This document shows, in pieces, positions 26,964 through 64,000 of a DNA stretch of 64,000 nt (positions within the stretch are counted from its first letter, which is position 1; every line of letters starts with the position of its first letter). The notes under the pieces were generated by a model. That model ran no database searches. It worked only from the letters and a program-made list of their open reading frames with translations, and was not told the origin of the DNA. Position numbers and translations under genes: made by a program. The stretch comes from a bacterium (lineage in GTDB: Bacteria; Bacillota_I; Bacilli_A; RF39; UBA660), in NCBI GenBank assembly GCA_029007115.1, contig JAQXHG010000009.1, positions 246 through 64,245 of the forward strand. Direction: 5' to 3'.

Positions 26964-26972
26964 TTTAAATAT

Positions 26973-26999
26973 AAAAACTTAGAGAAATCTAAGTTTTTT
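26973..26999 (+). terminator. Intrinsic terminator after tuf
   Basis: AAAAACTTAGA, loop GAAA, TCTAAGTTTTT. Confidence 0.75.
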
Positions 27000-27073
27000 A
27001 TTTGTATTTCTATTTTATAATGATATAATTATTATATAAGATAAGAAAGTATATCTAAGTTGGAGGATATAAA

Positions 27074-29857
27074 ATGAAAAATAAAAAAGGCTTTGCATTT
27101 ATGGAAACAGTAATAATATTAATGGTAGTAACTTTATCACTAGCATTATTATTATCAACCTATTCTTTAATATCAAGAAAATCAAAAGAGAAAGAAAATT
27201 ATGATAAAGCATCTGATAAATACCTTTTGTATTCTGTTATGAATCTTGGCACAAATGCAAGATATAATTATAAAAGTATGTTAGATGAAAATTATATTTT
27301 AGGACCTAAAATAACACCCGATAATTGTTCGGAGTACGATGTTCTTAGAAACATATATAATGATTCAGAATTATCATCATCTAGTGAAACAAATTGTAAA
27401 AAAATATATGAAAGCATGGATATAATTGCTCTTTATTTAGTTAAAGATATAAATCAAGCATTATCATCACCACAAGCTACAGAACATTTTGATAATGGAA
27501 CAATAAATTATTTAAAAACATTAAAGAAATGTAATGATGAAGATAATAAATATATAAAAGATGGAATGGTAATAAATACTTCTGAGTATGTTTGCGATAA
27601 ACCAATAAATTATTTGGTTGGAGTATTTTATAAAAATGATGAATATTATTTTGCATCATTAGTTCTAGGAGATGAAAAACTATCTAAAAATAATGGGATA
27701 TATACAGTAAAAATAAATTATTTATATAAAGAAGATAAAAGCGTAGCTTCAGATAGTTATCAAATTGAGTTAAAAGATATAGAAAGATACAATGTTAAGT
27801 CACCAACAATAACAGGATACACCCCAGATAAAGAAGTTGTATCGGGATTTATAAATGGTGGAAATATGACAATAAATGTTGAGTATGAAGCCAATAAATA
27901 TGATTTAACACTAAATCAGCAATTTGAAAGTGGAGAAACAACAAAAGTAACTGCAACATATAATAAAACTCTTCCAAATGTATCTGTACCAAGTAGAGCA
28001 GGATATACATTTAATGGTTATTATACAGAGACTTCGGGTAAAGGAGAGAAGTATTACGATGCGAATGGCAAGAGTTCTATAATATGGGAACAAACTTCTG
28101 GTAAAACATTATATGCATCTTGGACTGTCCATACATACATGGTTAAATATAATGGAAATGGAGCAGTAGGTGGAAGTACAGCAAGCACTAATCATATATA
28201 TGATATATTTGAAAAATTAAGTAATAACGGATTTGAAAGAAACGGATATATTTTCCAAGGCTGGAATTCACAAGCAGATGGAACTGGAGAAAATTTTGCT
28301 GAAGGACAAACTGTTAAAAACTTAACAACTGCAAATAATGAAGTAGTTAACTTATATGCAATTTGGAAGCAAAAAAATGTTACTTGTGCTGAATTATCAA
28401 GTGCCGTACAATGTAATACAAACAAAACTGATAAGATGTTTAATTTTACTGGTTCGTGTGAGTATTCATGCCTTGATAATAATAAAAATATTTGGAGAAT
28501 TAAATTCAAATCTGATGGTGATTTCACTTTAGGCACTGATATGAGTTTAGATATCTTTACTGTCGGTGGTGGCGGTGGAGGTGGAACTAATTGTAGTGCC
28601 GCTCCAGGATTCTATTGCCAAGATGGCGGTGGAGGTGGCGGTGGCTACACTAAAACTTATTTGAAACAGGATATTAAAGCAGGAAAATATGAAATTAAAA
28701 TTGGAGCAGGTGGAGCTGTTACTGGAAATGGTGGTATTTCTTATTTTGGTAGCAGTAGTACTTACTTTTCAAAAGGAGGATATGGTTCTACTAGTAAAAC
28801 TGGTGGAGCAGGTGGCTCTGGTGGTGGAAGTGGATCATGTTCTTATTGTCAAGGATGGGACTGGAGTGGCTGTGTAAATTTTGGTTCTGAACATGGTAGT
28901 GGCGGAAGATTTGGTTCAAATGGTTCAGGATGTAGCAGTGCCTCTGGAGGTGCTGGGCAAAAATATACAACATGTGAATTTGGACTTGGTACAAATTCAG
29001 GCTGTTATGGTGTAACCGAATATTCTCGAGGAGGAATTGGAAGTCCAGTTGTTGCTAATAGTGGAAATGGTGGTGATATTGGAGGCGTTGGTTCATCAGG
29101 AACAGTAGTTATTAGAAATAATCTTATTTATGATATTGTTATCAATGGAAATTTAATTGGAACTTATACAGGATCTTTTGATATTATAAATGAAGACGCT
29201 AATAATTGGAAAATAAAATTCTTATCAAGTGGAGAATTAGTTTTAAAAACCTCACTTAATGTGGATTTATTCCTAGTTGGTGGTGGAGGTGGTGGTGGCA
29301 ACACTTGCACTACTACATCAGCAGGGACATATTGTCAATCAGGAGGTGGAGGTGGAGGCGGTTATACCAAAACTTATAAAAATCAAACGATTACTGCAGG
29401 AACTTATAAAATAGAAATAGGTGATGGAGGATTCCTTGGAGATAATGGAAAAGCCACATACTTTGGTTCTACGAGTACTTATTATGCAGCTGGTGGTTCT
29501 GGCGCTACAAACAATGGAGGAAATGGTGGCTCTGGTGGTGGAAGTGGTTCGTGTGCTGTTTGTCAAGGAACAGACTGGAGTGGATGTGTCAATTTTGGCT
29601 CTCTAAATGGTAGTGGTGGAAAATTTGGTGGCTATGGTACCGGGTGTAGCACTTCTCTAGGTAGTGCCTCTGGAGGTGCTGGCCAAAATTATACGACATG
29701 TGAATTTGGACTTGGTACGACTTTTTCATGTAATACTGGAATTACTGCTTATGCGCAAGGTGGAATGGGTGCTCCATCAATCGCAAACAGTGGAAATGGT
29801 GGTAATGTTGGCGGTTCTGGAAATTCAGGAATTTTAATCATTAGGAATAAGCGTTAA
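27074..29857 (+). CDS. Large modular protein with a type IV prepilin-like N-terminus, a MucBP-like module, two Listeria-Bacteroides repeats and two glycine-rich modules
   Basis: MKNKKG|FAFMETVIILMVV has Gly at -1, Phe at +1 and Glu at +5 followed by a hydrophobic helix. Adhesin-type modules are ITGYTPDKEVVSGFINGGNMTINVEY, GYTFNGYYT..LYASW and GYIFQGWNSQADGTG..LYAIW. The Gly-rich signature VGGGGGGG...GGGGGGGYTKTY...GAGG occurs twice. Confidence 0.85.
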   Translation: MKNKKGFAFMETVIILMVVTLSLALLLSTYSLISRKSKEKENYDKASDKYLLYSVMNLGTNARYNYKSMLDENYILGPKITPDNCSEYDVLRNIYNDSELSSSSETNCKKIYESMDIIALYLVKDINQALSSPQATEHFDNGTINYLKTLKKCNDEDNKYIKDGMVINTSEYVCDKPINYLVGVFYKNDEYYFASLVLGDEKLSKNNGIYTVKINYLYKEDKSVASDSYQIELKDIERYNVKSPTITGYTPDKEVVSGFINGGNMTINVEYEANKYDLTLNQQFESGETTKVTATYNKTLPNVSVPSRAGYTFNGYYTETSGKGEKYYDANGKSSIIWEQTSGKTLYASWTVHTYMVKYNGNGAVGGSTASTNHIYDIFEKLSNNGFERNGYIFQGWNSQADGTGENFAEGQTVKNLTTANNEVVNLYAIWKQKNVTCAELSSAVQCNTNKTDKMFNFTGSCEYSCLDNNKNIWRIKFKSDGDFTLGTDMSLDIFTVGGGGGGGTNCSAAPGFYCQDGGGGGGGYTKTYLKQDIKAGKYEIKIGAGGAVTGNGGISYFGSSSTYFSKGGYGSTSKTGGAGGSGGGSGSCSYCQGWDWSGCVNFGSEHGSGGRFGSNGSGCSSASGGAGQKYTTCEFGLGTNSGCYGVTEYSRGGIGSPVVANSGNGGDIGGVGSSGTVVIRNNLIYDIVINGNLIGTYTGSFDIINEDANNWKIKFLSSGELVLKTSLNVDLFLVGGGGGGGNTCTTTSAGTYCQSGGGGGGGYTKTYKNQTITAGTYKIEIGDGGFLGDNGKATYFGSTSTYYAAGGSGATNNGGNGGSGGGSGSCAVCQGTDWSGCVNFGSLNGSGGKFGGYGTGCSTSLGSASGGAGQNYTTCEFGLGTTFSCNTGITAYAQGGMGAPSIANSGNGGNVGGSGNSGILIIRNKR
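28487..29854 (+). repeat. In-frame tandem duplication (period 714 nt, 238 aa) encoding the Gly-rich, Cys-bearing module
   Basis: Copy 1 spans ~28487-29122 and copy 2 ~29201-29854. A 23-nt identical core GGTGGCTCTGGTGGTGGAAGTGG sits at 28811 and 29525. ACATGTGAATTTGGACTTGGTAC also occurs in both copies. Confidence 0.85.
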
Positions 29858-29864
29858 TAAAATT

Positions 29865-29901
29865 AAAACTATTATATTGATTCATTCAATATAATAGTTT
29901 T
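29865..29901 (+). terminator. Strong intrinsic terminator
   Basis: A 16-bp perfect stem joins AAAACTATTATATTGA and TCAATATAATAGTTTT around loop TTCAT. Confidence 0.8.
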
Positions 29902-30182
29902 TAATATTTATTGTAAATTAAAATTAATAAAAGAATAATATTAGTGATAATTAAAAATATATAAGTGATGAATATATTTTTAAACTAATGGCTTTTAATA
30001 TGAATATGTTGAAACTTAAATTTAAATCAATATTAATAATACTTTAATCTATATTGTTTTTATTTTTTTAAATAGTAAAAGATTTAAAAATAAATTATAG
30101 TTAGTAAATATTTTGTATCTTAGTATTTTATGATAAAATTGATATAAGAAATAAATAATAATTTAAAAGGAGTTATATAAAT

Positions 30183-30713
30183 ATGGATATACTAGAAAAA
30201 ATAATTCCAAGAGGAAGAGAAGATTACAAATGTTATGATTTAATTAAATATATAATATCTACTAATAAAGATTATAAAAAAATAATAGAAAATGGTCTTA
30301 TTTTAGATAAAATTAAACCATTTGATGAAGAATTATTGCAAAAATTTAATATGTTAAATATTAGATGGCCTGTAAAAGATATTGATGAGGTTCTATTTCT
30401 AGGTGGTAATATAGGAGGGTGTACTACTATGGCTCATCAATTAAGTTTTATAATTGATAAAAGTTATAAATGTGCTGGATTTTTGCCAATATTAGCTGGT
30501 ACAAAGAATTGTAATGATGGAACTCATACTTGGGTAGAAAGTCCAGATGGATGGATATATGATACATCATTAATGCTTATAATTCATAAATCATATAAGA
30601 ATGAAATGGGATATAAAGAAAATATAAGAGAGGCGTATGATAAATTAAAATTTTATTCAGAACAAAAGGAATTTGCTTTAGATGATAGTTTAATGAGTCA
30701 TCAAAAAAAATAA
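30183..30713 (+). CDS. Transglutaminase-like or papain-like cysteine peptidase-fold protein (cytoplasmic, 176 aa)
   Basis: A candidate Cys-His-Asp triad lies in GGCTTMAH ... GTHTWVESPDGWIYDTS. There is no signal peptide. Confidence 0.55.
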   Translation: MDILEKIIPRGREDYKCYDLIKYIISTNKDYKKIIENGLILDKIKPFDEELLQKFNMLNIRWPVKDIDEVLFLGGNIGGCTTMAHQLSFIIDKSYKCAGFLPILAGTKNCNDGTHTWVESPDGWIYDTSLMLIIHKSYKNEMGYKENIREAYDKLKFYSEQKEFALDDSLMSHQKK

Positions 30714-30787
30714 TTTAATATTAAGTATATTGAAAATATATATTTTTTATTGTACAATATGCTTAAATTTTCTTGAAGGGGAATATT

Positions 30788-31462
30788 ATGAATAGAAATA
30801 TTAAAAATAAATTAGTAGCATATGGATTAACTCTTGCTAGTGTTATAAGTTTAAATGGGTGTGCAAGAAAAATTAATTGTAATATTGAAGAAAATCATGT
30901 TCATTTATATAAGTCAGACAATGGAATAGTAAAATATGATTCATCAGAATTAGATGTTTTACCTAGTAATTATTATAGAACTGATATTACTTTTAATGTT
31001 ACTCCTTATGAGCGTAGTTATTTTAATTATTTAAGTGATAATGGTTTTATTCATATCGAAACTAATTATGATTTGCTTAAAAAATATTTTCCTAAATTAC
31101 CAGATTATACTGAATATGAATATTCATATGAAGAATTAACAAATAGTAAAGAAATAAGAGATGAAAATGGTGATATTGTTGAAGTTGTTAATAAGTATGG
31201 AATAAAATATGATTGGATAAAAATACCAAAAGATGAAAATTTAACAGGAAAAGAAAGAACTATTACATATGCATATAGGGGATATAAAATATATTTTGAT
31301 GAAAGACAAAAGAAATTTTATTATGAACTTAGTGGATATTATGATACATTAGATGATTTAATTAAAGATGGATATACTCATATTAAAATTAATACATTTG
31401 TAAGACAAGTGGATAAAAATGATGTGATATCTTTAAGTGATGAAATAACTTTAACTAAATAA
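30788..31462 (+). CDS. Lipoprotein of unknown function
   Basis: Lipobox LNGC in LTLASVISLNGCARK. The ATG at 30788 follows GAAGGGGA; the TTG at 30773 is rejected. Confidence 0.7.
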   Translation: MNRNIKNKLVAYGLTLASVISLNGCARKINCNIEENHVHLYKSDNGIVKYDSSELDVLPSNYYRTDITFNVTPYERSYFNYLSDNGFIHIETNYDLLKKYFPKLPDYTEYEYSYEELTNSKEIRDENGDIVEVVNKYGIKYDWIKIPKDENLTGKERTITYAYRGYKIYFDERQKKFYYELSGYYDTLDDLIKDGYTHIKINTFVRQVDKNDVISLSDEITLTK

Positions 31463-33690: not shown

Positions 33691-35259
33691 ATGAAAAAAA
33701 TAGTAAAAGCTTTATTGGTATTATTTGCTCTAGTTTTCTGTTTTACATTTGTTAATGCGGCTGATTCTAAACCAACAACAGCCAAGGCGCCAGAGACACT
33801 ACCTGCTACTAATGAAACTGTACAAGCAGTATTAGATGAACCATTTGATTATAGTAAAATATCTTTTTCATCAAGTGATGGTCAAACAACAATTACTGGA
33901 CGATCAATTATGAGAAAAATTATGATAACTCTAACACCAAATGCATCTGGAAATACAATAGAGGAAAAATTAGGAGATAGTTGGTTTACTGTATATTGCC
34001 TTGATGGAGAACTTAAATTTCCACTATATAGTTATACTAATTTTGAATTTAGTGAAAGCGCATCAGATGAATTAAAATTACAACAAGTTATGATGTTTGC
34101 ATTATTTAATAATGGAAGTTTTAGAGATGCTTTTCTTAAAGCAAAAGGAATGATAATGGATCCTACAATTAATTATCAATTATCTGCAGATAAGACTTCA
34201 ACTTCAGTTTTAGCGGCAATAGATGCTGGTGAGGAAGTAACAGTAACTTTAAATAGTATTGTATATGTAGATGCAGAAACATTGAATACTATTACAATTA
34301 CACCTGCTGATTTAACTGGTAATGCATCAGATACGACATATTCTTTAGTACTTAAAAAAGAAAATATGATGTTTGATAATTATTATGCAAAATTATTAGA
34401 TAATAAAAATTATACTCATGCATTATGGATTATTGAACATAGCTATCCAACTTTAGATATTAGGACTTCACTAATGATGGCAGATGCTAGTTATACTAAC
34501 TTAATAACTGAAATTAAAGCATTACATCAAGAATTGTCTTTAACTGATGAAGAATGGGAAAAATTAACTGAAAATTATGTATATTCAACTGTTCAATATG
34601 CTATATGGAGAGTTAATAATAGTATTACTGATGGAAATGCCAAACTTGGTAATGAATTAATAGGAAGTAGTGAACTTAATAAGTTATATCAATATTTAAT
34701 TAAAGATAGAAGTGAATATGAAGGATATTATGATAAACAATTTACAAATACTTTGGACTTAAAAAAACCAGATTCAAAGAAAGAAATATTCTCCGAAACT
34801 AAAGATTATTATGTTTATGGTCCATATTCAGTAGAATATAGTCTTATATCTTTAGATAGAGTAGATATAAGTATTGATGGACTTACAAGTGATAAAGCTA
34901 GTTTAGTTGACGAATCAGGAGCTACTCTTACATCAATAACACCAAATCAAAATTTCTATATTAAGGTAGCTAAGAATGCAAAAATTGCTAATCTTAAAGT
35001 TAATTTATCAACACAAAATGCATTAACTTTTTTCCCATCAACTAATAGAGGAAGAATTTATACAGCATATTATCCATTAGTTCAAAATGTTGTATCTGGT
35101 GGTAAAATTGTTAATACTGATATTTCTAAATCTGTTGATATAATATTTAATCCAAAAACAGGTGTTGAAGACATTGCAGTGTTATTTGCAATAACATTAG
35201 TGGCATTTTCAATTGGATATTTAGCGTTAGTATTTAAAAGTAAACCTGTTAAATTTTAA
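33691..35259 (+). CDS. Cell-wall-anchored thioester-domain (TQXA-type) surface adhesin with an NPKTG sorting signal
   Basis: Signal peptide ..FVNA|AD. Cys103 lies in FTVYCLDG and Gln302 in STVQYAIW. NPKTG (35149-35163) is followed by a TM segment and a KSK tail. Confidence 0.8.
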   Translation: MKKIVKALLVLFALVFCFTFVNAADSKPTTAKAPETLPATNETVQAVLDEPFDYSKISFSSSDGQTTITGRSIMRKIMITLTPNASGNTIEEKLGDSWFTVYCLDGELKFPLYSYTNFEFSESASDELKLQQVMMFALFNNGSFRDAFLKAKGMIMDPTINYQLSADKTSTSVLAAIDAGEEVTVTLNSIVYVDAETLNTITITPADLTGNASDTTYSLVLKKENMMFDNYYAKLLDNKNYTHALWIIEHSYPTLDIRTSLMMADASYTNLITEIKALHQELSLTDEEWEKLTENYVYSTVQYAIWRVNNSITDGNAKLGNELIGSSELNKLYQYLIKDRSEYEGYYDKQFTNTLDLKKPDSKKEIFSETKDYYVYGPYSVEYSLISLDRVDISIDGLTSDKASLVDESGATLTSITPNQNFYIKVAKNAKIANLKVNLSTQNALTFFPSTNRGRIYTAYYPLVQNVVSGGKIVNTDISKSVDIIFNPKTGVEDIAVLFAITLVAFSIGYLALVFKSKPVKF

Positions 35260-45911: not shown

Positions 45912-45941
45912 AAAATAAGAAATCGAATGATTTCTTATTTT
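45912..45941. terminator. Bidirectional terminator (13-bp perfect stem)
   Basis: AAAATAAGAAATC, loop GAAT, GATTTCTTATTTT. It overlaps the stop of the minus-strand gene. Confidence 0.7.
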
Positions 45942-47842
45942 TCTCTTATATTTAAATAAGTTATTAAACCAAGTAATATATTTTTCACTTCTTGATTAAT
46001 TTCTATATTATTTAATTCTAATATTGCTTTAGAAGATAATTCATTTATTTTATCATTTGCATATTTTAAACTTCCAGAATCTATTATAATGTCTTTAATG
46101 ATTTTAAGTTCTTTTTCATTTAAATTTTGTTTGCCATAATACTTTATTAATTCTTTATAATAATCTTTTTTATTAATTTTAATATAAGAATATAATATTG
46201 TTTGCTTAAATTCTTCTATATCAGAACACACTGATTTTCCAAGTGTATCTTTATTACTAAATATACCAAGAATATCATCTTTAATTTGAAAAGAAATGCC
46301 GATATTCATAAGTATATTTTCCATTTTTTCTATATCTTTTTGCTTTGAATTACCTAATATCATACCGAGTATAAATGGACCTATAATTGAATAGTAAGAT
46401 GTTTTTAATTTATAAATCTCAAATATATCTTCTTCTTTAAGATGATTTTTAGTATTATTTTTTTCTATGTAAGGAAGATATACATCAAGTATTTCTCCCT
46501 TTATTGTATTTATAACTATATCATTATAGTAAGCAAATAATTTAGTGAAATTTTTATCATTTTTATATGAATCTAATATTAATTTATTAGTATAATAGAA
46601 ACCAATATCTCCAATACATAAAGCTAAATTATTAGGAGTATTATCTTGGCACTTATATTTTTTAAATTCTTTTGAGTATGTGTTATGTATAGTTTCTTTC
46701 CCTCGTCTAGTATTTGCATTATCTATTATATCATCATGTATTAATATTGATGTTTGAAATGTTTCATATGCGATTGCAAGGGGAAGAGAATAGTTGTCTA
46801 TATTATTACTTAATTTATATCCTAAGTTAATTAAAGTGCCTCTTAAAAATTTACCATCTTTATTTAAATTAATAAATTTATTTATAGCATCTTTTATAAT
46901 TTTATTGTCTTTGTTATTTATTAGGGTATCATTAAATTTATTAATTTCATTACTTAATAGAGATAATTGTTTTTTATAAAAGATCATAAATTCAAGTAAA
47001 TTAGAAAACTCATATACTTCTTCTTTTAAAGTAGATGCACTGCCTGTTATACCAATATTAATATTATCACTAATATTTTCTTTTTTAATAAATTCGTAAA
47101 AATCTTTTATATTTGAAAATAAATATGTGTTTTTTTGGACTTTTAAACATTTATTATATAATTCTTTTGTATTTGAACTATTATTTCCTCCAATAATAAT
47201 CATTAAGTCCATAGTTTTAGCAAGATTAACAGAACTATCATGAATTAATTTTTGATTGTTACATATAGTATTATCAAATATATAGTCATAGTTATTTTCA
47301 TTTAAATAATTATAGAATTTTTGACATTTATCAATATTAGCAGTTGTTTGACTCACAACATAATATTTTTCCTTTTTATCAAGCAATTTATAATCTTCTT
47401 CACTCTCAATAATAATAGCACTATTATTTATATGACCATTAATGCCTATAACCTCTGGATGTTCTTTTTTACCTATAATAATTATTTTATATCCATTGTT
47501 ATATTTATCAATAACTAGATTATGTATTTTTTTAACGTTAATACAAGTTGCATCATAATATGTAATATTGTTGTTTTCTAAATAATCATAAGTACTTTTT
47601 GCTTCTCCATGAGCTCTTATAATTAAAATATCATTTTTATTTATTAAAGATAAATCATCAATACAATAAATATTCCTTTTTTCTAAATAGTCAATTATAT
47701 ATTTATTATGTAATATTTCTTTATAAATATATACATTTTTATTCTTATTTTTTTCTTTTAATTCAATTGCCATATTAATTGCTTTAATAGAGCCACTGCA
47801 ACAGCCAAATACATTTGGATAATGTATCATAGTAATATTCAC
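45935..47842 (-). CDS. ispH: Fusion protein: N-terminal IspH (HMBPP reductase, aa 1 to ~280) plus C-terminal trans-polyprenyl diphosphate synthase (aa ~300-635)
   Basis: The three IspH cluster Cys contexts are GCCSGS, ATCINV and NTICNN, with GITGSAST at the domain end. The prenyl synthase FARM is LIHDDIIDNANTRRG and the SARM-like motif is FQIKDDILG. The ORF is a single uninterrupted 635 codons. Confidence 0.85.
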   Translation of the reverse strand: MNITMIHYPNVFGCCSGSIKAINMAIELKEKNKNKNVYIYKEILHNKYIIDYLEKRNIYCIDDLSLINKNDILIIRAHGEAKSTYDYLENNNITYYDATCINVKKIHNLVIDKYNNGYKIIIIGKKEHPEVIGINGHINNSAIIIESEEDYKLLDKKEKYYVVSQTTANIDKCQKFYNYLNENNYDYIFDNTICNNQKLIHDSSVNLAKTMDLMIIIGGNNSSNTKELYNKCLKVQKNTYLFSNIKDFYEFIKKENISDNINIGITGSASTLKEEVYEFSNLLEFMIFYKKQLSLLSNEINKFNDTLINNKDNKIIKDAINKFINLNKDGKFLRGTLINLGYKLSNNIDNYSLPLAIAYETFQTSILIHDDIIDNANTRRGKETIHNTYSKEFKKYKCQDNTPNNLALCIGDIGFYYTNKLILDSYKNDKNFTKLFAYYNDIVINTIKGEILDVYLPYIEKNNTKNHLKEEDIFEIYKLKTSYYSIIGPFILGMILGNSKQKDIEKMENILMNIGISFQIKDDILGIFSNKDTLGKSVCSDIEEFKQTILYSYIKINKKDYYKELIKYYGKQNLNEKELKIIKDIIIDSGSLKYANDKINELSSKAILELNNIEINQEVKNILLGLITYLNIREK

Positions 47843-57626: not shown

Positions 57627-57734
57627 CCTTTTTATAATGGAATAAATTTTTCGTTTACGAAAATAATATATAGAAATATTGAATTTAATCAGTAAAAATG
57701 ATATATTTGATAATAGAGAGGTTAGGTGAACCAC

Positions 57735-60392
57735 ATGCTTGATAGTATATTTGGAAATTATATGGATAGTGAAAGAAAAGATAATAAAAAAGATCTAAAA
57801 AGAATATCTGAACTTGAAAGTAAATTAAATATAACTAATTCACAAAAAATTATTAAAGTTAGAATTGATGGCAATGTGGTTGAAATGACAGAGGAAGCCT
57901 ATGCCTTTTATAAAAAGACAAATGAATTTAGAAAAAGATTAAGAGAAGGACAATCAATAGATAGTATTATGCCTGAGGCTTTAGCTGTTTGTAGAGAAGC
58001 AGTAAAAAGGAAACTTAATATGAGACCATATGATGTTCAAGTTGAAGCAGCAATGGCTATGCAGGGTAAGAATATAATTGAGATGAAAACGGGTGAAGGT
58101 AAAAGTCTTGTTCAAATATTAAGTGCTTATTTAAAAGCACTTGATGCGACTAAATCAGAAAATAAAAAAGAATGGGGAAGTATACATATTCTTACATCAA
58201 ATGATTATTTGGCTCAAAGAGATCAAGAGACTAATAAAGAAGTTTTTTCTTTACTTGGATTTACTAGTTCATATGTATTGTCAAAAGATAAGTTAAGAGG
58301 AAAGAAAGAAAATCTAAAAAGTTATAAAGATAGAAAAAAAGAAGCCTATAAATGCGATATAGTATATTCTACTGCAAGAACAGTAGCATTTGATTATTTG
58401 CAAGATAATACAAGATTTGAAAAAGAAGATGTATATATAACTAGACCTTTACATAGTGCTATAGTAGATGAGGCTGATGATATATTATTAGATGATGCAA
58501 CTAAACCATTGATATTAAATGGTAATCCTAGTAAAGGTAATGAAATATTTGATAGAAAACAAAAAGAATTAGAAAATAAACCTATAACTGTGCAAGAGGA
58601 AAACATTTATTTATGGGCAACTAAATATATAAATGGCGTATATAGGAAAAATAATGAGGCTATACCAACTACTTATTATGAACAAAAACCTTTAGGTAAT
58701 AGCGCTACTTATAGGGGCTCTGCTGTGTTTGCAAATAGACAAGAAGTATTATTATCTCCAATGATAGAAGATGAATTATATAATATGACTGAAAAAGAAG
58801 TTAAAAGTAAGGGAACAAATGAAGATATAAATGCATTATATGCGATGAGATTAAGTGCGGTAGAACTTTGCATATTAGCAAGAGAAGTTTATCATGCGGA
58901 TAAACAATATTTAGTAAGAGATAATAAAATTGTGCTTGTTGACTCAAATGGTAGACCACAGCATAAATCAAAATATAGAGATGGTTTACATGAAGCTCTT
59001 GAATATAAAGAAGATTTTAGATTAAAAAAAGAAGGAAAAAAAGGTATAGAGCTAAGTAAACCTAGAAATTTTGTTGCTAAGTGTACTTTTCCTGATTTTT
59101 TTAGCATTTATTCAAATGGTTATAGTGGAATGACTGGAACTAGTGATAAAGAAGAATTTGAAGAAATTTATGATCATTCTACATATAAAGTTGAAAGTAG
59201 AATTCCTAATATAAGAAAAGATGAAGAAGATGAAATATATACTACTATGGAAGCAAAACATCAAGCAATAATTAAAGAGGTTTTAAAGTGTCAAAAGACA
59301 GGACAACCTGTATTAATAGGTACTTTAAATATTATTGAAAGTAAAGCAATTTGTGATAAATTAGAAGCACTTGGTATAAGATTTCAAAGATTAGATGCAT
59401 TAAGTGCTGATAGTATGGAAAAAGAGTCTGCAATAGTATCTACCGCGGGACTTCTAGGTAGTGTAACAGTTGCAACAAATATGGCTGGTCGTGGAACTGA
59501 TATAAAACTTGGACCTGGAGTAAAAGAAGTTGGTGGCTTGTATGTTATTGGTGCTTCTAAAAATAATAATGTAAGAATAGATAACCAATTAAGAGGTAGA
59601 GCAGGAAGACAAGGGGACCCTGGTAAAAGCAAATATTTTATTTCTCTTGATGATGAAATGATACAAAAAAGAGGAAGAAAGCAAATATTTAGATTTCAAA
59701 GAAATGCTAAAGATGGTAGAATTACTAATAAAAGAATTATCAAATTAGTAGAATATTGTCAAAAGATTGAAACTGGAATACAAAAATTAGAAAGAAAAAT
59801 AAAAGAAAAAAGGGCGATGGAAACTTTTACACCATATAAAAATGAAATATATGCAGAAAGAAAAAAAGTTTTTGATGCTAACCCTGATGAATTTGAAAAA
59901 TATATTCTAAGAAAAGTAGATGGTTTTGTAGATACAACATTTTTAATATCAAAAGATTATGATGATTTATCAGCTAGATTTAAAAATATTGCCTACATAG
60001 ACCCTGGAATTTATCAATCAAGTTTACATAATGGAACAATAGATGTTTATAAAAAAGAATTAGCTAATAGTATAAAAGAAAAAATTAAAGCAAAAATGAC
60101 TACTAAAGAAGATAAGATGAATTTTTATGTAGAAAATAGATATAATGCCTTAGAAAGTTTTAATGGATATTGGGCAGATTATTCTTTGTGGCTTGAAGAT
60201 TTTGAAGCAAAACAATCACTTCTTCGTTTCGGAGCTAATTATAATCAAGATACGTTTAAAAATGAAGCAAATAAAAGATATGTTGAAACATTAAGTTCTT
60301 TATTTAATGATATTATAAGTTTTGCAATCAATGGTGAAAAAATACTAGATAATCAAATGACTAATGAAGAAAGTATAGGGGTAGTAAGATGA
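57735..60392 (+). CDS. secA2: Divergent SecA-family ATPase (accessory SecA2-like; no C-terminal Zn-finger tail)
   Basis: MKTGEGKSL Walker A, VDEADDILLDDATKPLIL, GMTGTS, VATNMAGRGTDIKLG and GRAGRQGDPGKSKYFISLDDEM. The ATG at 57735 follows AGGTGA. Confidence 0.85.
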   Translation: MLDSIFGNYMDSERKDNKKDLKRISELESKLNITNSQKIIKVRIDGNVVEMTEEAYAFYKKTNEFRKRLREGQSIDSIMPEALAVCREAVKRKLNMRPYDVQVEAAMAMQGKNIIEMKTGEGKSLVQILSAYLKALDATKSENKKEWGSIHILTSNDYLAQRDQETNKEVFSLLGFTSSYVLSKDKLRGKKENLKSYKDRKKEAYKCDIVYSTARTVAFDYLQDNTRFEKEDVYITRPLHSAIVDEADDILLDDATKPLILNGNPSKGNEIFDRKQKELENKPITVQEENIYLWATKYINGVYRKNNEAIPTTYYEQKPLGNSATYRGSAVFANRQEVLLSPMIEDELYNMTEKEVKSKGTNEDINALYAMRLSAVELCILAREVYHADKQYLVRDNKIVLVDSNGRPQHKSKYRDGLHEALEYKEDFRLKKEGKKGIELSKPRNFVAKCTFPDFFSIYSNGYSGMTGTSDKEEFEEIYDHSTYKVESRIPNIRKDEEDEIYTTMEAKHQAIIKEVLKCQKTGQPVLIGTLNIIESKAICDKLEALGIRFQRLDALSADSMEKESAIVSTAGLLGSVTVATNMAGRGTDIKLGPGVKEVGGLYVIGASKNNNVRIDNQLRGRAGRQGDPGKSKYFISLDDEMIQKRGRKQIFRFQRNAKDGRITNKRIIKLVEYCQKIETGIQKLERKIKEKRAMETFTPYKNEIYAERKKVFDANPDEFEKYILRKVDGFVDTTFLISKDYDDLSARFKNIAYIDPGIYQSSLHNGTIDVYKKELANSIKEKIKAKMTTKEDKMNFYVENRYNALESFNGYWADYSLWLEDFEAKQSLLRFGANYNQDTFKNEANKRYVETLSSLFNDIISFAINGEKILDNQMTNEESIGVVR

Positions 60393-63940: not shown

Positions 63941-64000
63941 ATGAATAAAAAAGGTTTTACATTAATAGAATTACTATTGGTTATTGTTATAATGTCTATA
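63941..64000 (+). CDS. 5' end of a type IV pilin/pseudopilin gene, truncated by the window edge
   Basis: MNKKG|FTLIELLLVIVIMSI is the canonical prepilin N-methylation motif (GFTLIE). SD AGAGGAAAG. Confidence 0.75.
   Translation, partial: MNKKGFTLIELLLVIVIMSI

Follow-up and report, generated by a model that had tools for sequence, protein, structure and literature searches.

We analysed a stretch of 64,000 nucleotides (positions 246 to 64,245 of contig JAQXHG010000009.1, assembly GCA_029007115.1, from a bacterium of the RF39 lineage), hereafter called the window, and focused on one gene at 27074–29857 of its plus strand. This open reading frame (ORF) encodes a modular type IV pilin-like protein of 927 amino acids (aa), as judged from its sequence, its Pfam matches and a 99%-identical relative (P0001). 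The N-terminus of the protein reads MKNKKGFAFMETVIILMVVTLSLALLL, and both the ORF and this N-terminus were found exactly as the initial annotation of the DNA had given them. A Shine-Dalgarno sequence read from the sequence, GGAGGA (27062–27067, plus strand), stands before the ATG with a 6-nt spacer. On the 5′ side, a terminator hairpin of tuf (26973–27003, plus strand; the fold of 26964–27010 gave −12.6 kcal/mol and z = −4.5, and a U-tract follows) sets the gene apart from the rpsL-rpsG-fusA-tuf unit. On the 3′ side, there is an intrinsic terminator (29865–29901, plus strand) with a perfect 16-bp AT-rich stem and a 5-nt loop, followed by UUUUUAAUAUUU. This stem had a folding energy of −16 kcal/mol (z = −5.4, 0 of 200 shuffles equally stable), and the tract 3′ of it is U-rich. 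Both AT-rich hairpins were missed by the consensus terminator scan because it needs at least three G-C pairs, and both were recovered by direct folding. Since the gene has its own Shine-Dalgarno sequence, the tuf terminator in front and its own terminator behind, it is an independent and probably monocistronic unit, as had been stated from its ribosome-binding site and 16-bp terminator.

The first six residues, MKNKKG (27074–27091, plus strand), constitute a putative class III leader, for which a prepilin-peptidase cut is predicted after G6. They are followed by a predicted pilin module (residues 7–198; 27092–27667, plus strand), which was delimited using homologue alignment, AlphaFold2 and hhalign and includes a hydrophobic alpha1 and an alpha/beta head with four Cys. 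The hydrophobic tract is FAFMETVIILMVVTLSLALLL, with Phe at +1 and Glu at +5. Among 26 aligned homologues, G6, F7, E11 and the four Cys of the head were invariant. Furthermore, 144 intact N-termini were drawn from the 150 listed representatives of this head family, no two of which share 50% identity or more. Gly(-1) and Glu(+5) were present in 144 of the 144 and Phe(+1) in 140, behind leaders of 4–10 aa; with the remaining +1 residue included, the overall pattern was G↓F/Y...E(+5), where the arrow marks the putative cut. In addition, 7 of the 26 head-family members had weak matches to N_methyl (best E 0.0019), and no Pfam family was common to more of them. The head family was also aligned by hhalign with an adjacent N_methyl-positive family over the leader and alpha1N (95%, E 3.8e-8).

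The stand-alone homologues of the head (165–260 aa) end at "...YYFASIEI", which is aligned to residue 198, and the 927-aa protein runs on from there into a linker and further modules. Judging from this alignment, residues 1–198 appear to be a complete, pilin-sized carrier module. The AlphaFold2 model of the head, made from the alignment (predicted local distance difference test score, pLDDT, 79), shows a continuous 54-residue helix at residues 5–58 and then an alpha/beta globule, with beta-strands at residues 117–123, 160–167, 179–187 and 190–198.

The next element is a MucBP-like beta module at residues 210–271 (27701–27886, plus strand). It appears to be a borderline resemblance only: Muc_B2 (PF17966) was matched at E 3.6e-4 with 21.4 bits, below the cut-off of 23.5 and over the last third of the model only, PF06458 gave no match, and the PDB chain 2kvz (85 aa) was matched at E 0.026. 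Then two Listeria-Bacteroides repeats (InlB B-repeat/Flg_new) follow on the same strand, repeat 1 at residues 276–350 (27899–28123; limits taken from the GYTFxGYY...LYASW motif) and repeat 2 at residues 355–431 (28136–28366; best Pfam stretch 355–418). Flg_new (PF09479) matched in two stretches (E 1.9e-11, 44.3 bits against a cut-off of 27), and TIGR02543 scored 30.4 bits against 20.95. The rest of the protein consists of two Gly_rich_2 modules, each with a beta-sandwich and a glycine-rich region. Module 1 occupies residues 458–682 (28445–29119, plus strand) and was defined by self-alignment, PF21722 and the PHROG tail-fibre families; module 2 occupies residues 698–925 at the distal end (29165–29848, plus strand; best Pfam stretch 728–924) and was defined by Pfam, AlphaFold2 and BFVD. 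Gly_rich_2 (PF21722) was matched in two stretches (E 3.6e-8, 34.1 bits against a cut-off of 24.3). By self-alignment, the two modules share 60% identity over 231 columns, with 27% Gly and eight aligned Cys in each. The extracellular arm therefore consists of the MucBP-like domain and both InlB-type B-repeats, with the two tandem modules of beta-sandwich and glycine-rich region at its end.

Most of this anatomy had been recognised in the initial annotation. The class III signal features (Gly at −1, Phe at +1, Glu at +5) are kept throughout the family, the Cys-containing region behind the N-terminus is the head with its invariant Cys, and the two Listeria-Bacteroides repeats scored above the cut-off. 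The two glycine-rich modules had been likened to phage tail-fibre proteins, and the two Gly_rich_2 matches, BFVD, PHROG and a podophage gene context agree with this. The MucBP-like module is a resemblance only and did not reach the curated cut-off of Muc_B2.

The C-terminus of the protein, ...GNSGILIIRNKR, lies inside the glycine-rich module and contains neither an LPXTG motif nor a hydrophobic tail. Sortase anchoring was thus ruled out by the C-terminal sequence. Since there is no sortase or cell-wall anchor at the C-terminus, the N-terminus is the sole attachment point.

The relatives of the Gly_rich_2 modules are mostly small stand-alone phage proteins, and PHROG tail-fibre families were matched. 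For instance, the gene of the stand-alone Gly_rich_2 protein P0163 is located in a podophage structural block, in the order portal ... large tail proteins, Gly_rich_2, GH25 lysin and holin. The AlphaFold2 model of module 2 (37-sequence alignment) had a pLDDT of 92.1 and a predicted template modelling score (pTM) of 0.90. When this model was searched against BFVD, 133 entries matched at E <= 1e-3. Phage "glycine-rich domain-containing" proteins ranked first (TM-score at most 0.71, E 2e-15), and algal giant-virus proteins were also among the matches. Against PDB, the TNF-like plus glycine-rich domains of ALK/LTK were consistently on top, with weak scores (E 8e-3, TM about 0.25). The glycine-rich modules are thus homologous to domains of phage tail and tail-fibre proteins.

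One may ask from these matches whether the gene is a tail-fibre gene of a prophage or phage remnant, or was transferred recently from phage to host and is still phage equipment. The local G+C content also rises to 36% across 28–30 kb, compared with about 24% in the window. However, glycine codons are GGN, and such a rise is expected because the C-terminal third of the protein holds 27% Gly. The gene is flanked by tuf, genes without assigned function, a UvrD-like helicase gene and mraZ/mraW, with other housekeeping genes around and no phage genes, so that the flanks are not a phage structural block. Its position is syntenic in a related metagenome-assembled genome (MAG), GCA_051872765.1, where a 95%-identical 927-aa orthologue also follows tuf. 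Furthermore, the N-terminal two-thirds of the protein are bacterial pilin and adhesin modules, and the nearest stand-alone Gly_rich_2 proteins are only 35–42% identical. A prophage origin was ruled out by the housekeeping context and the synteny with the related MAG, and we regard a phage function of this gene as very improbable.

A search with residues 1–208 alone retrieved 32 proteins, most of which were 174–260 aa long and without a Pfam domain. In the full-length search, Flg_new matches dominated; P0003 (695 aa) and P0004 (699 aa) keep the N-terminus and the head and have one glycine-rich module. Giant canonical N_methyl plus Flg_new proteins (P0066, P0086 and P0113) were also retrieved. 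In an exhaustive HMMER search with the head alignment over 1.84 billion representatives, the head family comprised 359 representatives (58 at E <= 1e-30), and the head was always N-terminal. Twenty-seven of the 150 listed representatives are longer than 280 aa, and the 927-aa protein is the longest. The cargo on the long members includes Flg_new alone, Flg_new with Laminin_G_3, Gly_rich_2, GLUG or Flg_new_2, and DUF285. This varied cargo on one head is the carrier-plus-effector pattern of modular pilins. In the reference-genome scan, the family was found in uncultured "Bacilli", "Tenericutes" and "Erysipelotrichaceae" MAGs from rabbit, rumen, human and mouse gut. The carrier family is thus confined to uncultured gut Bacilli/"Tenericutes" lineages, in which its adhesin cargo was swapped repeatedly.

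Some further observations concern these relatives. In GCA_051872765.1 (locus L001, 1531–6522), the 695-aa P0003 is a tandem paralogue behind the orthologue; it contains one divergent Cys-rich Gly module, is preceded by a copied promoter/Shine-Dalgarno region, and is absent from the window (27074–30183 compared). The sequence 3′ of the 927-aa stop codon, terminator included, differs between the window strain and this MAG. Meanwhile, P0146 (locus L010, 9986–10996) has C-terminal choline-binding repeats (Choline_bind_3, E 1.7e-4) replacing Flg_new behind the head and lies at a normal three-gene locus of the kind described below.

The stand-alone paralogues occur in a conserved gene order: engB, lon, a LysM gene (SpoVID-like), a YsxE-like gene, three pilin-like genes, ylbJ on the opposite strand, radC, spoIVFA/spoIVFB and rplU. 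The set of three begins with a GFI..S gene without Glu5 (220–490 aa), the head-family gene is in the middle, and a GFTL.E gene comes last. This last gene scores above the cut-off of PF07963 in locus L053 (29.7 bits against 21.2) and above that of TIGR02532 in L004 (21.1 against 16.3). In several lineages, the middle gene is itself about 410–620 aa long. Since these long middle genes are at the same position, modular and stand-alone versions occupy the same slot. The 927-aa gene, in turn, stands outside such a set and is an orphan paralogue of its middle gene. The third (GFTL.E-type) gene is apparently missing in L010 and L011.

A further pilin gene starts at the end of the window (63941–64000, plus strand), separate from the 927-aa gene. 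It is a canonical type IV pilin gene, MNKKG↓FTLIELLLVIVIMSI..., and is cut by the window end. In contigs that are 99.2% identical across a 1854-nt overlap, its product has 176 aa, matches PF07963 and passes TIGR02532 (29.4 bits against 16.3). Thus, the genome encodes at least one protein fitting the standard prepilin-motif models. The gene directly follows spoIVA and a 69-aa gene, and the next gene carries an ordinary Sec signal peptide. In the roughly 600 bp beyond the window end, as reconstructed via identical proteins elsewhere, there were the canonical pilin gene and the Sec-signal protein and no machinery gene.

These placements raise the question whether the pilin-like genes of this lineage act in spore formation or on the spore surface, in which case the 927-aa protein would belong to a type IV-like filament associated with sporulation. 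The three-gene set stands between SpoVID-like/YsxE-like genes and ylbJ/radC/spoIVFA/spoIVFB, and three pilin-like genes were seen embedded among sporulation genes in the lon-radC region of L004 (7017–12867), L005, L007, L008 and L010. In addition to the 176-aa pilin gene after spoIVA, a 152-aa pilin gene follows the YlbD coat-protein gene in L053, and the gene of the homologue P0004 sits 5′ of secA in another relative, within a secA...spoIVA block. However, such adjacency may be chance or inherited synteny, because sporulation genes are packed densely in genomes as small as these; in Bacillus subtilis, spoVID, ysxE, comC and radC lie in one region. Furthermore, the 927-aa gene itself follows tuf and lies beside genes without assigned function, and its adhesin cargo would be just as suitable for a role on the surface of vegetative cells. 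The adjacency of pilin and sporulation genes may reflect inherited synteny or a functional link, and we consider a sporulation filament improbable for the 927-aa protein.

Assembly machinery was sought by a motif scan of 92 sequences (91 loci around head-family genes and the window, 1.3 Mb). A looser P-loop scan found a single ORF, in L073, whose product is an ATPase of the CpaF/TadA type (PDB CpaF matched at E 5e-101). On one strand of L073 (3685–10963), there are two TadE/G-like genes, a CpaE/TadZ-like ParA ATPase gene, cpaF and two genes for TadB/TadC-like polytopic proteins; after these Tad genes come a large pilin-like gene, a head-type gene and a GFTL.E gene, and then valS. Here, CpaF was named from the search and all others from reading of the sequences. 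The head-type gene is homologous to the head of the 927-aa protein (154 columns, 96%, E 2.2e-9). A metagenome scan with the CpaF of L073 retrieved about 26 low-GC loci (identity >=61%). L146 (732–8312; CpaF 89%) repeats the whole arrangement, including a Flp-type pilin, and its last gene is of the GFTL.E/GITL.E type. GFTL.E-type genes were also found a few kb 3′ of tadC in L110, L118, L123 and L113, and at none of the other low-GC loci. The Tad locus looks complete in both L073 and L146. Of all assembly systems, only Tad-type machinery was thus found beside head-family genes, in one sub-lineage (L073/L146), and it may serve pilins of the GFxxxE type in some gut Bacilli. Since only L146 repeats the adjacency of L073, the link cannot be extended to the lineage of the window.

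As the best explanation of the results above, we propose that the product of the 927-aa gene is a minor pilin of modular design in a type IV filament, with a probability of about 0.7. The protein would be inserted in the membrane via its hydrophobic alpha1 helix, and a prepilin peptidase would remove the 6-residue leader after Gly6. The pilin module of about 190 residues would then be built into the filament, most probably at its tip, since a 730-residue cargo cannot pack in the filament body, and together with two other pilin-like proteins of the kind that accompany the stand-alone paralogues. The glycine-rich modules may act as ligand-binding heads, by which the cell would attach to mucus, host cells, food particles or other microbes through a glycan or protein exposed there. 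The gene itself probably descends from the middle one of the three pilin genes, as a paralogue that became an orphan. The initial annotation had likewise proposed a pilin N-terminus with grafted adhesin modules and a phage-like glycine-rich cargo, and this is supported by the family, the profiles, the paralogue context and the module matches.

Several results weigh against a modular minor pilin. The N-terminal methylation profiles PF07963 (N_methyl) and TIGR02532 did not match the 927-aa protein even at E <= 1. The NCBIfam equivalogs ComGE and ComGF reached 13.3 bits against a cut-off of 49 and 12.7 against 80, over the N-terminal 40 residues only; membership of these Com-pilus minor pilins was ruled out by scores so far below the cut-offs. 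No solved pilin resembling the head model was found by Foldseek against PDB (best E 1.7), and when the head alignment was searched as a profile against PDB, a 35-residue geopilin N-terminus (E 0.6) was the only match. Among the 50 other substantial ORFs of the window, all annotated with Pfam, there was no pilus-assembly ATPase, platform protein or A24 peptidase. On this point the initial annotation was right that the window holds no pilus-assembly gene, but it had overlooked the pilin gene that starts at 63941. PilB/ComGA-type (T2SSE) Walker A and A24 motifs were found in none of the 92 sequences, save the CpaF-like ATPase of L073, and the A24 motif was found neither in 80 further loci nor in L073/L146. 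The Tad adjacency is confined to L073/L146, whose head gene is a distant relative. Furthermore, we know of no ligand for a Gly_rich_2 domain of the present type, and the phage versions are usually trimeric, with two tandem copies on one chain here.

The unmatched prepilin-motif models, the lack of peptidase and assembly genes near the 927-aa gene and, the CpaF-like ATPase of L073 aside, at the head-family loci scanned, the isolated and monocistronic gene and the head model without a structural match to solved pilins would all suit a different protein, a surface adhesin outside any filament. It would be held by an uncleaved type II signal anchor, with the arm reaching through the wall, and G/F/E5 would be a relic of pilin ancestry. 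However, invariant Gly(-1) and Glu(+5) in all representatives of so divergent a family are hard to explain for a plain anchor, and a charged Glu within a membrane helix is normally selected against. In addition, the paralogues accompany proteins that pass the prepilin-motif models, there is a Tad locus in one lineage, and the same genome has a canonical pilin gene. An uncleaved, signal-anchored adhesin is the main rival to the modular minor pilin; it is disfavoured by the invariant residues, and we consider it unlikely.

Within the modular pilin explanation, a more specific and improbable version can be imagined for spore-forming gut Bacilli with reduced genomes. Tad machinery would polymerise a filament with a tip of large GFxxxE minor pilins, and two phage tail-fibre heads would have been exapted onto one of them for phage-like recognition of a target, possibly the surface glycan of another bacterium. 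If true, both the combination of pilin class and machinery and the transfer of domains from phage to pilus would be undescribed. The modular minor pilin as such, if confirmed, would give an entry point to the attachment of these uncultivated gut bacteria with reduced genomes to their hosts or partners. It would also exemplify the exchange of domains between bacterial adhesins and receptor-binding proteins of phages.

The other genes of the window include teichoic-acid genes, proS, holA, a rodA-type gene, der, rpsL-rpsG-fusA-tuf, a UvrD-like helicase gene and a gene for a thioester-domain protein, and further mraZ/mraW, a PBP gene, nusB, xseA, spoIVB, mgtE, uppS, ruvX, mltG, greA, tig, secA and spoIVA. 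This is the housekeeping and sporulation gene content of a low-GC, wall-bearing, spore-forming Firmicute. Immediately 3′ of the 927-aa gene is an ORF of 176 aa (30183–30713, plus strand), followed by one of 229 aa for a probable lipoprotein with the motif LNGCARK (30773–31462, plus strand). Neither had a Pfam or NCBIfam match, and the positions of both are kept in the related MAG. The thioester-domain protein (33691–35259, plus strand; 522 aa; TED, E 4.5e-10, with a weak TQXA match) is also conserved there; its gene lies 4 kb 3′ of the 927-aa gene, and it is probably another, covalently binding surface adhesin. A 635-aa ORF on the minus strand (45935–47842) contains a LytB/IspH domain (residues 10–281) and a polyprenyl synthetase domain (325–582); it apparently joins two enzymes of the isoprenoid pathway in one chain. 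In the secA product (57726–60392, plus strand), residues 57–479 match the 290-position SecA_DEAD model, which points to an insertion of about 170 residues in the motor domain.

Modular pilins explain how simple type IV filaments can gain new functions. Raynaud et al. (2021; PMC8179133) defined a modular pilin as a complete N-terminal pilin module with one or more extra domains not specific to type IV pili, and listed more than 1,200 of them in 264 architectures, including multi-domain ones. The 927-aa protein has the same layout, with its pilin module up to residue 198 followed by Flg_new and Gly_rich_2 domains. That census was built on the IPR012902 motif, and its authors expect it to be an underestimate, with many more modular pilins escaping signature detection. 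In Dataset S1 of the same study, the architecture IPR012902-IPR013378-IPR013378 (N_methyl plus two Listeria-Bacteroides repeats) is given for nine proteins. Thus, pilins decorated with these repeats are already known, and the novelty claimed in the initial annotation for a pilin with many modules was overstated. These nine proteins, as well as P0066, P0086 and P0113, resemble the 927-aa protein in having a pilin leader followed by Flg_new/InlB B-repeats; however, they all have canonical N_methyl motifs and head regions unrelated to that of the 927-aa protein. The identifiers of Gly_rich_2 (PF21722) and MucBP (IPR009459, PF06458) are absent from the dataset. No paper in the searched literature mentions PF21722, and a search for RF39 together with type IV pili found nothing specific to the lineage.

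The closest characterised parallels are PilB (vWA) and PilC (ConA-like lectin) of Streptococcus sanguinis (Raynaud et al. 2021, PMC8179133; Shahin et al. 2023, PMC9934059), which likewise have a small N-terminal pilin carrier with a module grafted C-terminally. A class III-type leader is common to them and the 927-aa protein, with tip-exposed adhesion presumed, and one relative of the latter, P0274, carries the lectin superfamily of PilC (Laminin_G_3/PF13385). However, PilB and PilC have one module and about 50 kDa, compared with five extra modules and 927 aa here. In addition, the pilin module here belongs to another family that escapes IPR012902/PF07963, the gene is isolated and not part of a complete pil locus, and the protein is known from sequence alone.

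For the distal modules, the comparison is with phage. In the study of Pam3 gp24 (PMC9608196), TNF-like and glycine-rich (polyglycine-II lattice) domains formed the receptor-recognising tip of the tail fibre, which is similar to Salmonella phage S16 gp38 and to the glycine-rich domain (GRD) of ALK. The C-terminal modules of the 927-aa protein share with these tips the beta-sandwich plus glycine-rich region and the likeness to the ALK/LTK GRD. However, the carrier on which they stand in tandem is a bacterial pilin-like one in place of a trimeric fibre shaft, and there is no chaperone gene next to the 927-aa gene.

The same concept, in which bulky ligand-binding domains are placed at the filament tip via a minor-pilin complex, is found in CofB of enterotoxigenic Escherichia coli, TcpB of Vibrio cholerae, GspK of the type II secretion system and the non-pilin PilY1/PilC. 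There is no sequence relation or detectable fold relation between any of these and the 927-aa protein; furthermore, the host here is monoderm, and its machinery may be of the Tad type. GspK and ComGG are not known to have Glu5, and the Glu5-less gene that accompanies the head family resembles them in this. Meanwhile, in the Tad (type IVc) case, the head-family set of L073/L146 directly follows flp/tadE-like/cpaE/cpaF/tadB/tadC. The Flp/TadE-type proteins there have G↓QALVE(Y/F) and 63–125 aa, whereas G↓F(V/A)F.E is the motif of the head family, whose members are far larger.

Compared with these systems, the 927-aa gene is an unusually elaborate example of the modular pilin design and not a new kind of system. 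What is new is a carrier family largely undetected by standard motif models. The tandem Gly_rich_2 cargo of phage receptor-binding type on a pilin also seems to be the first such fusion noted, and the number of modules on one pilin and the possible Tad connection are new as well.

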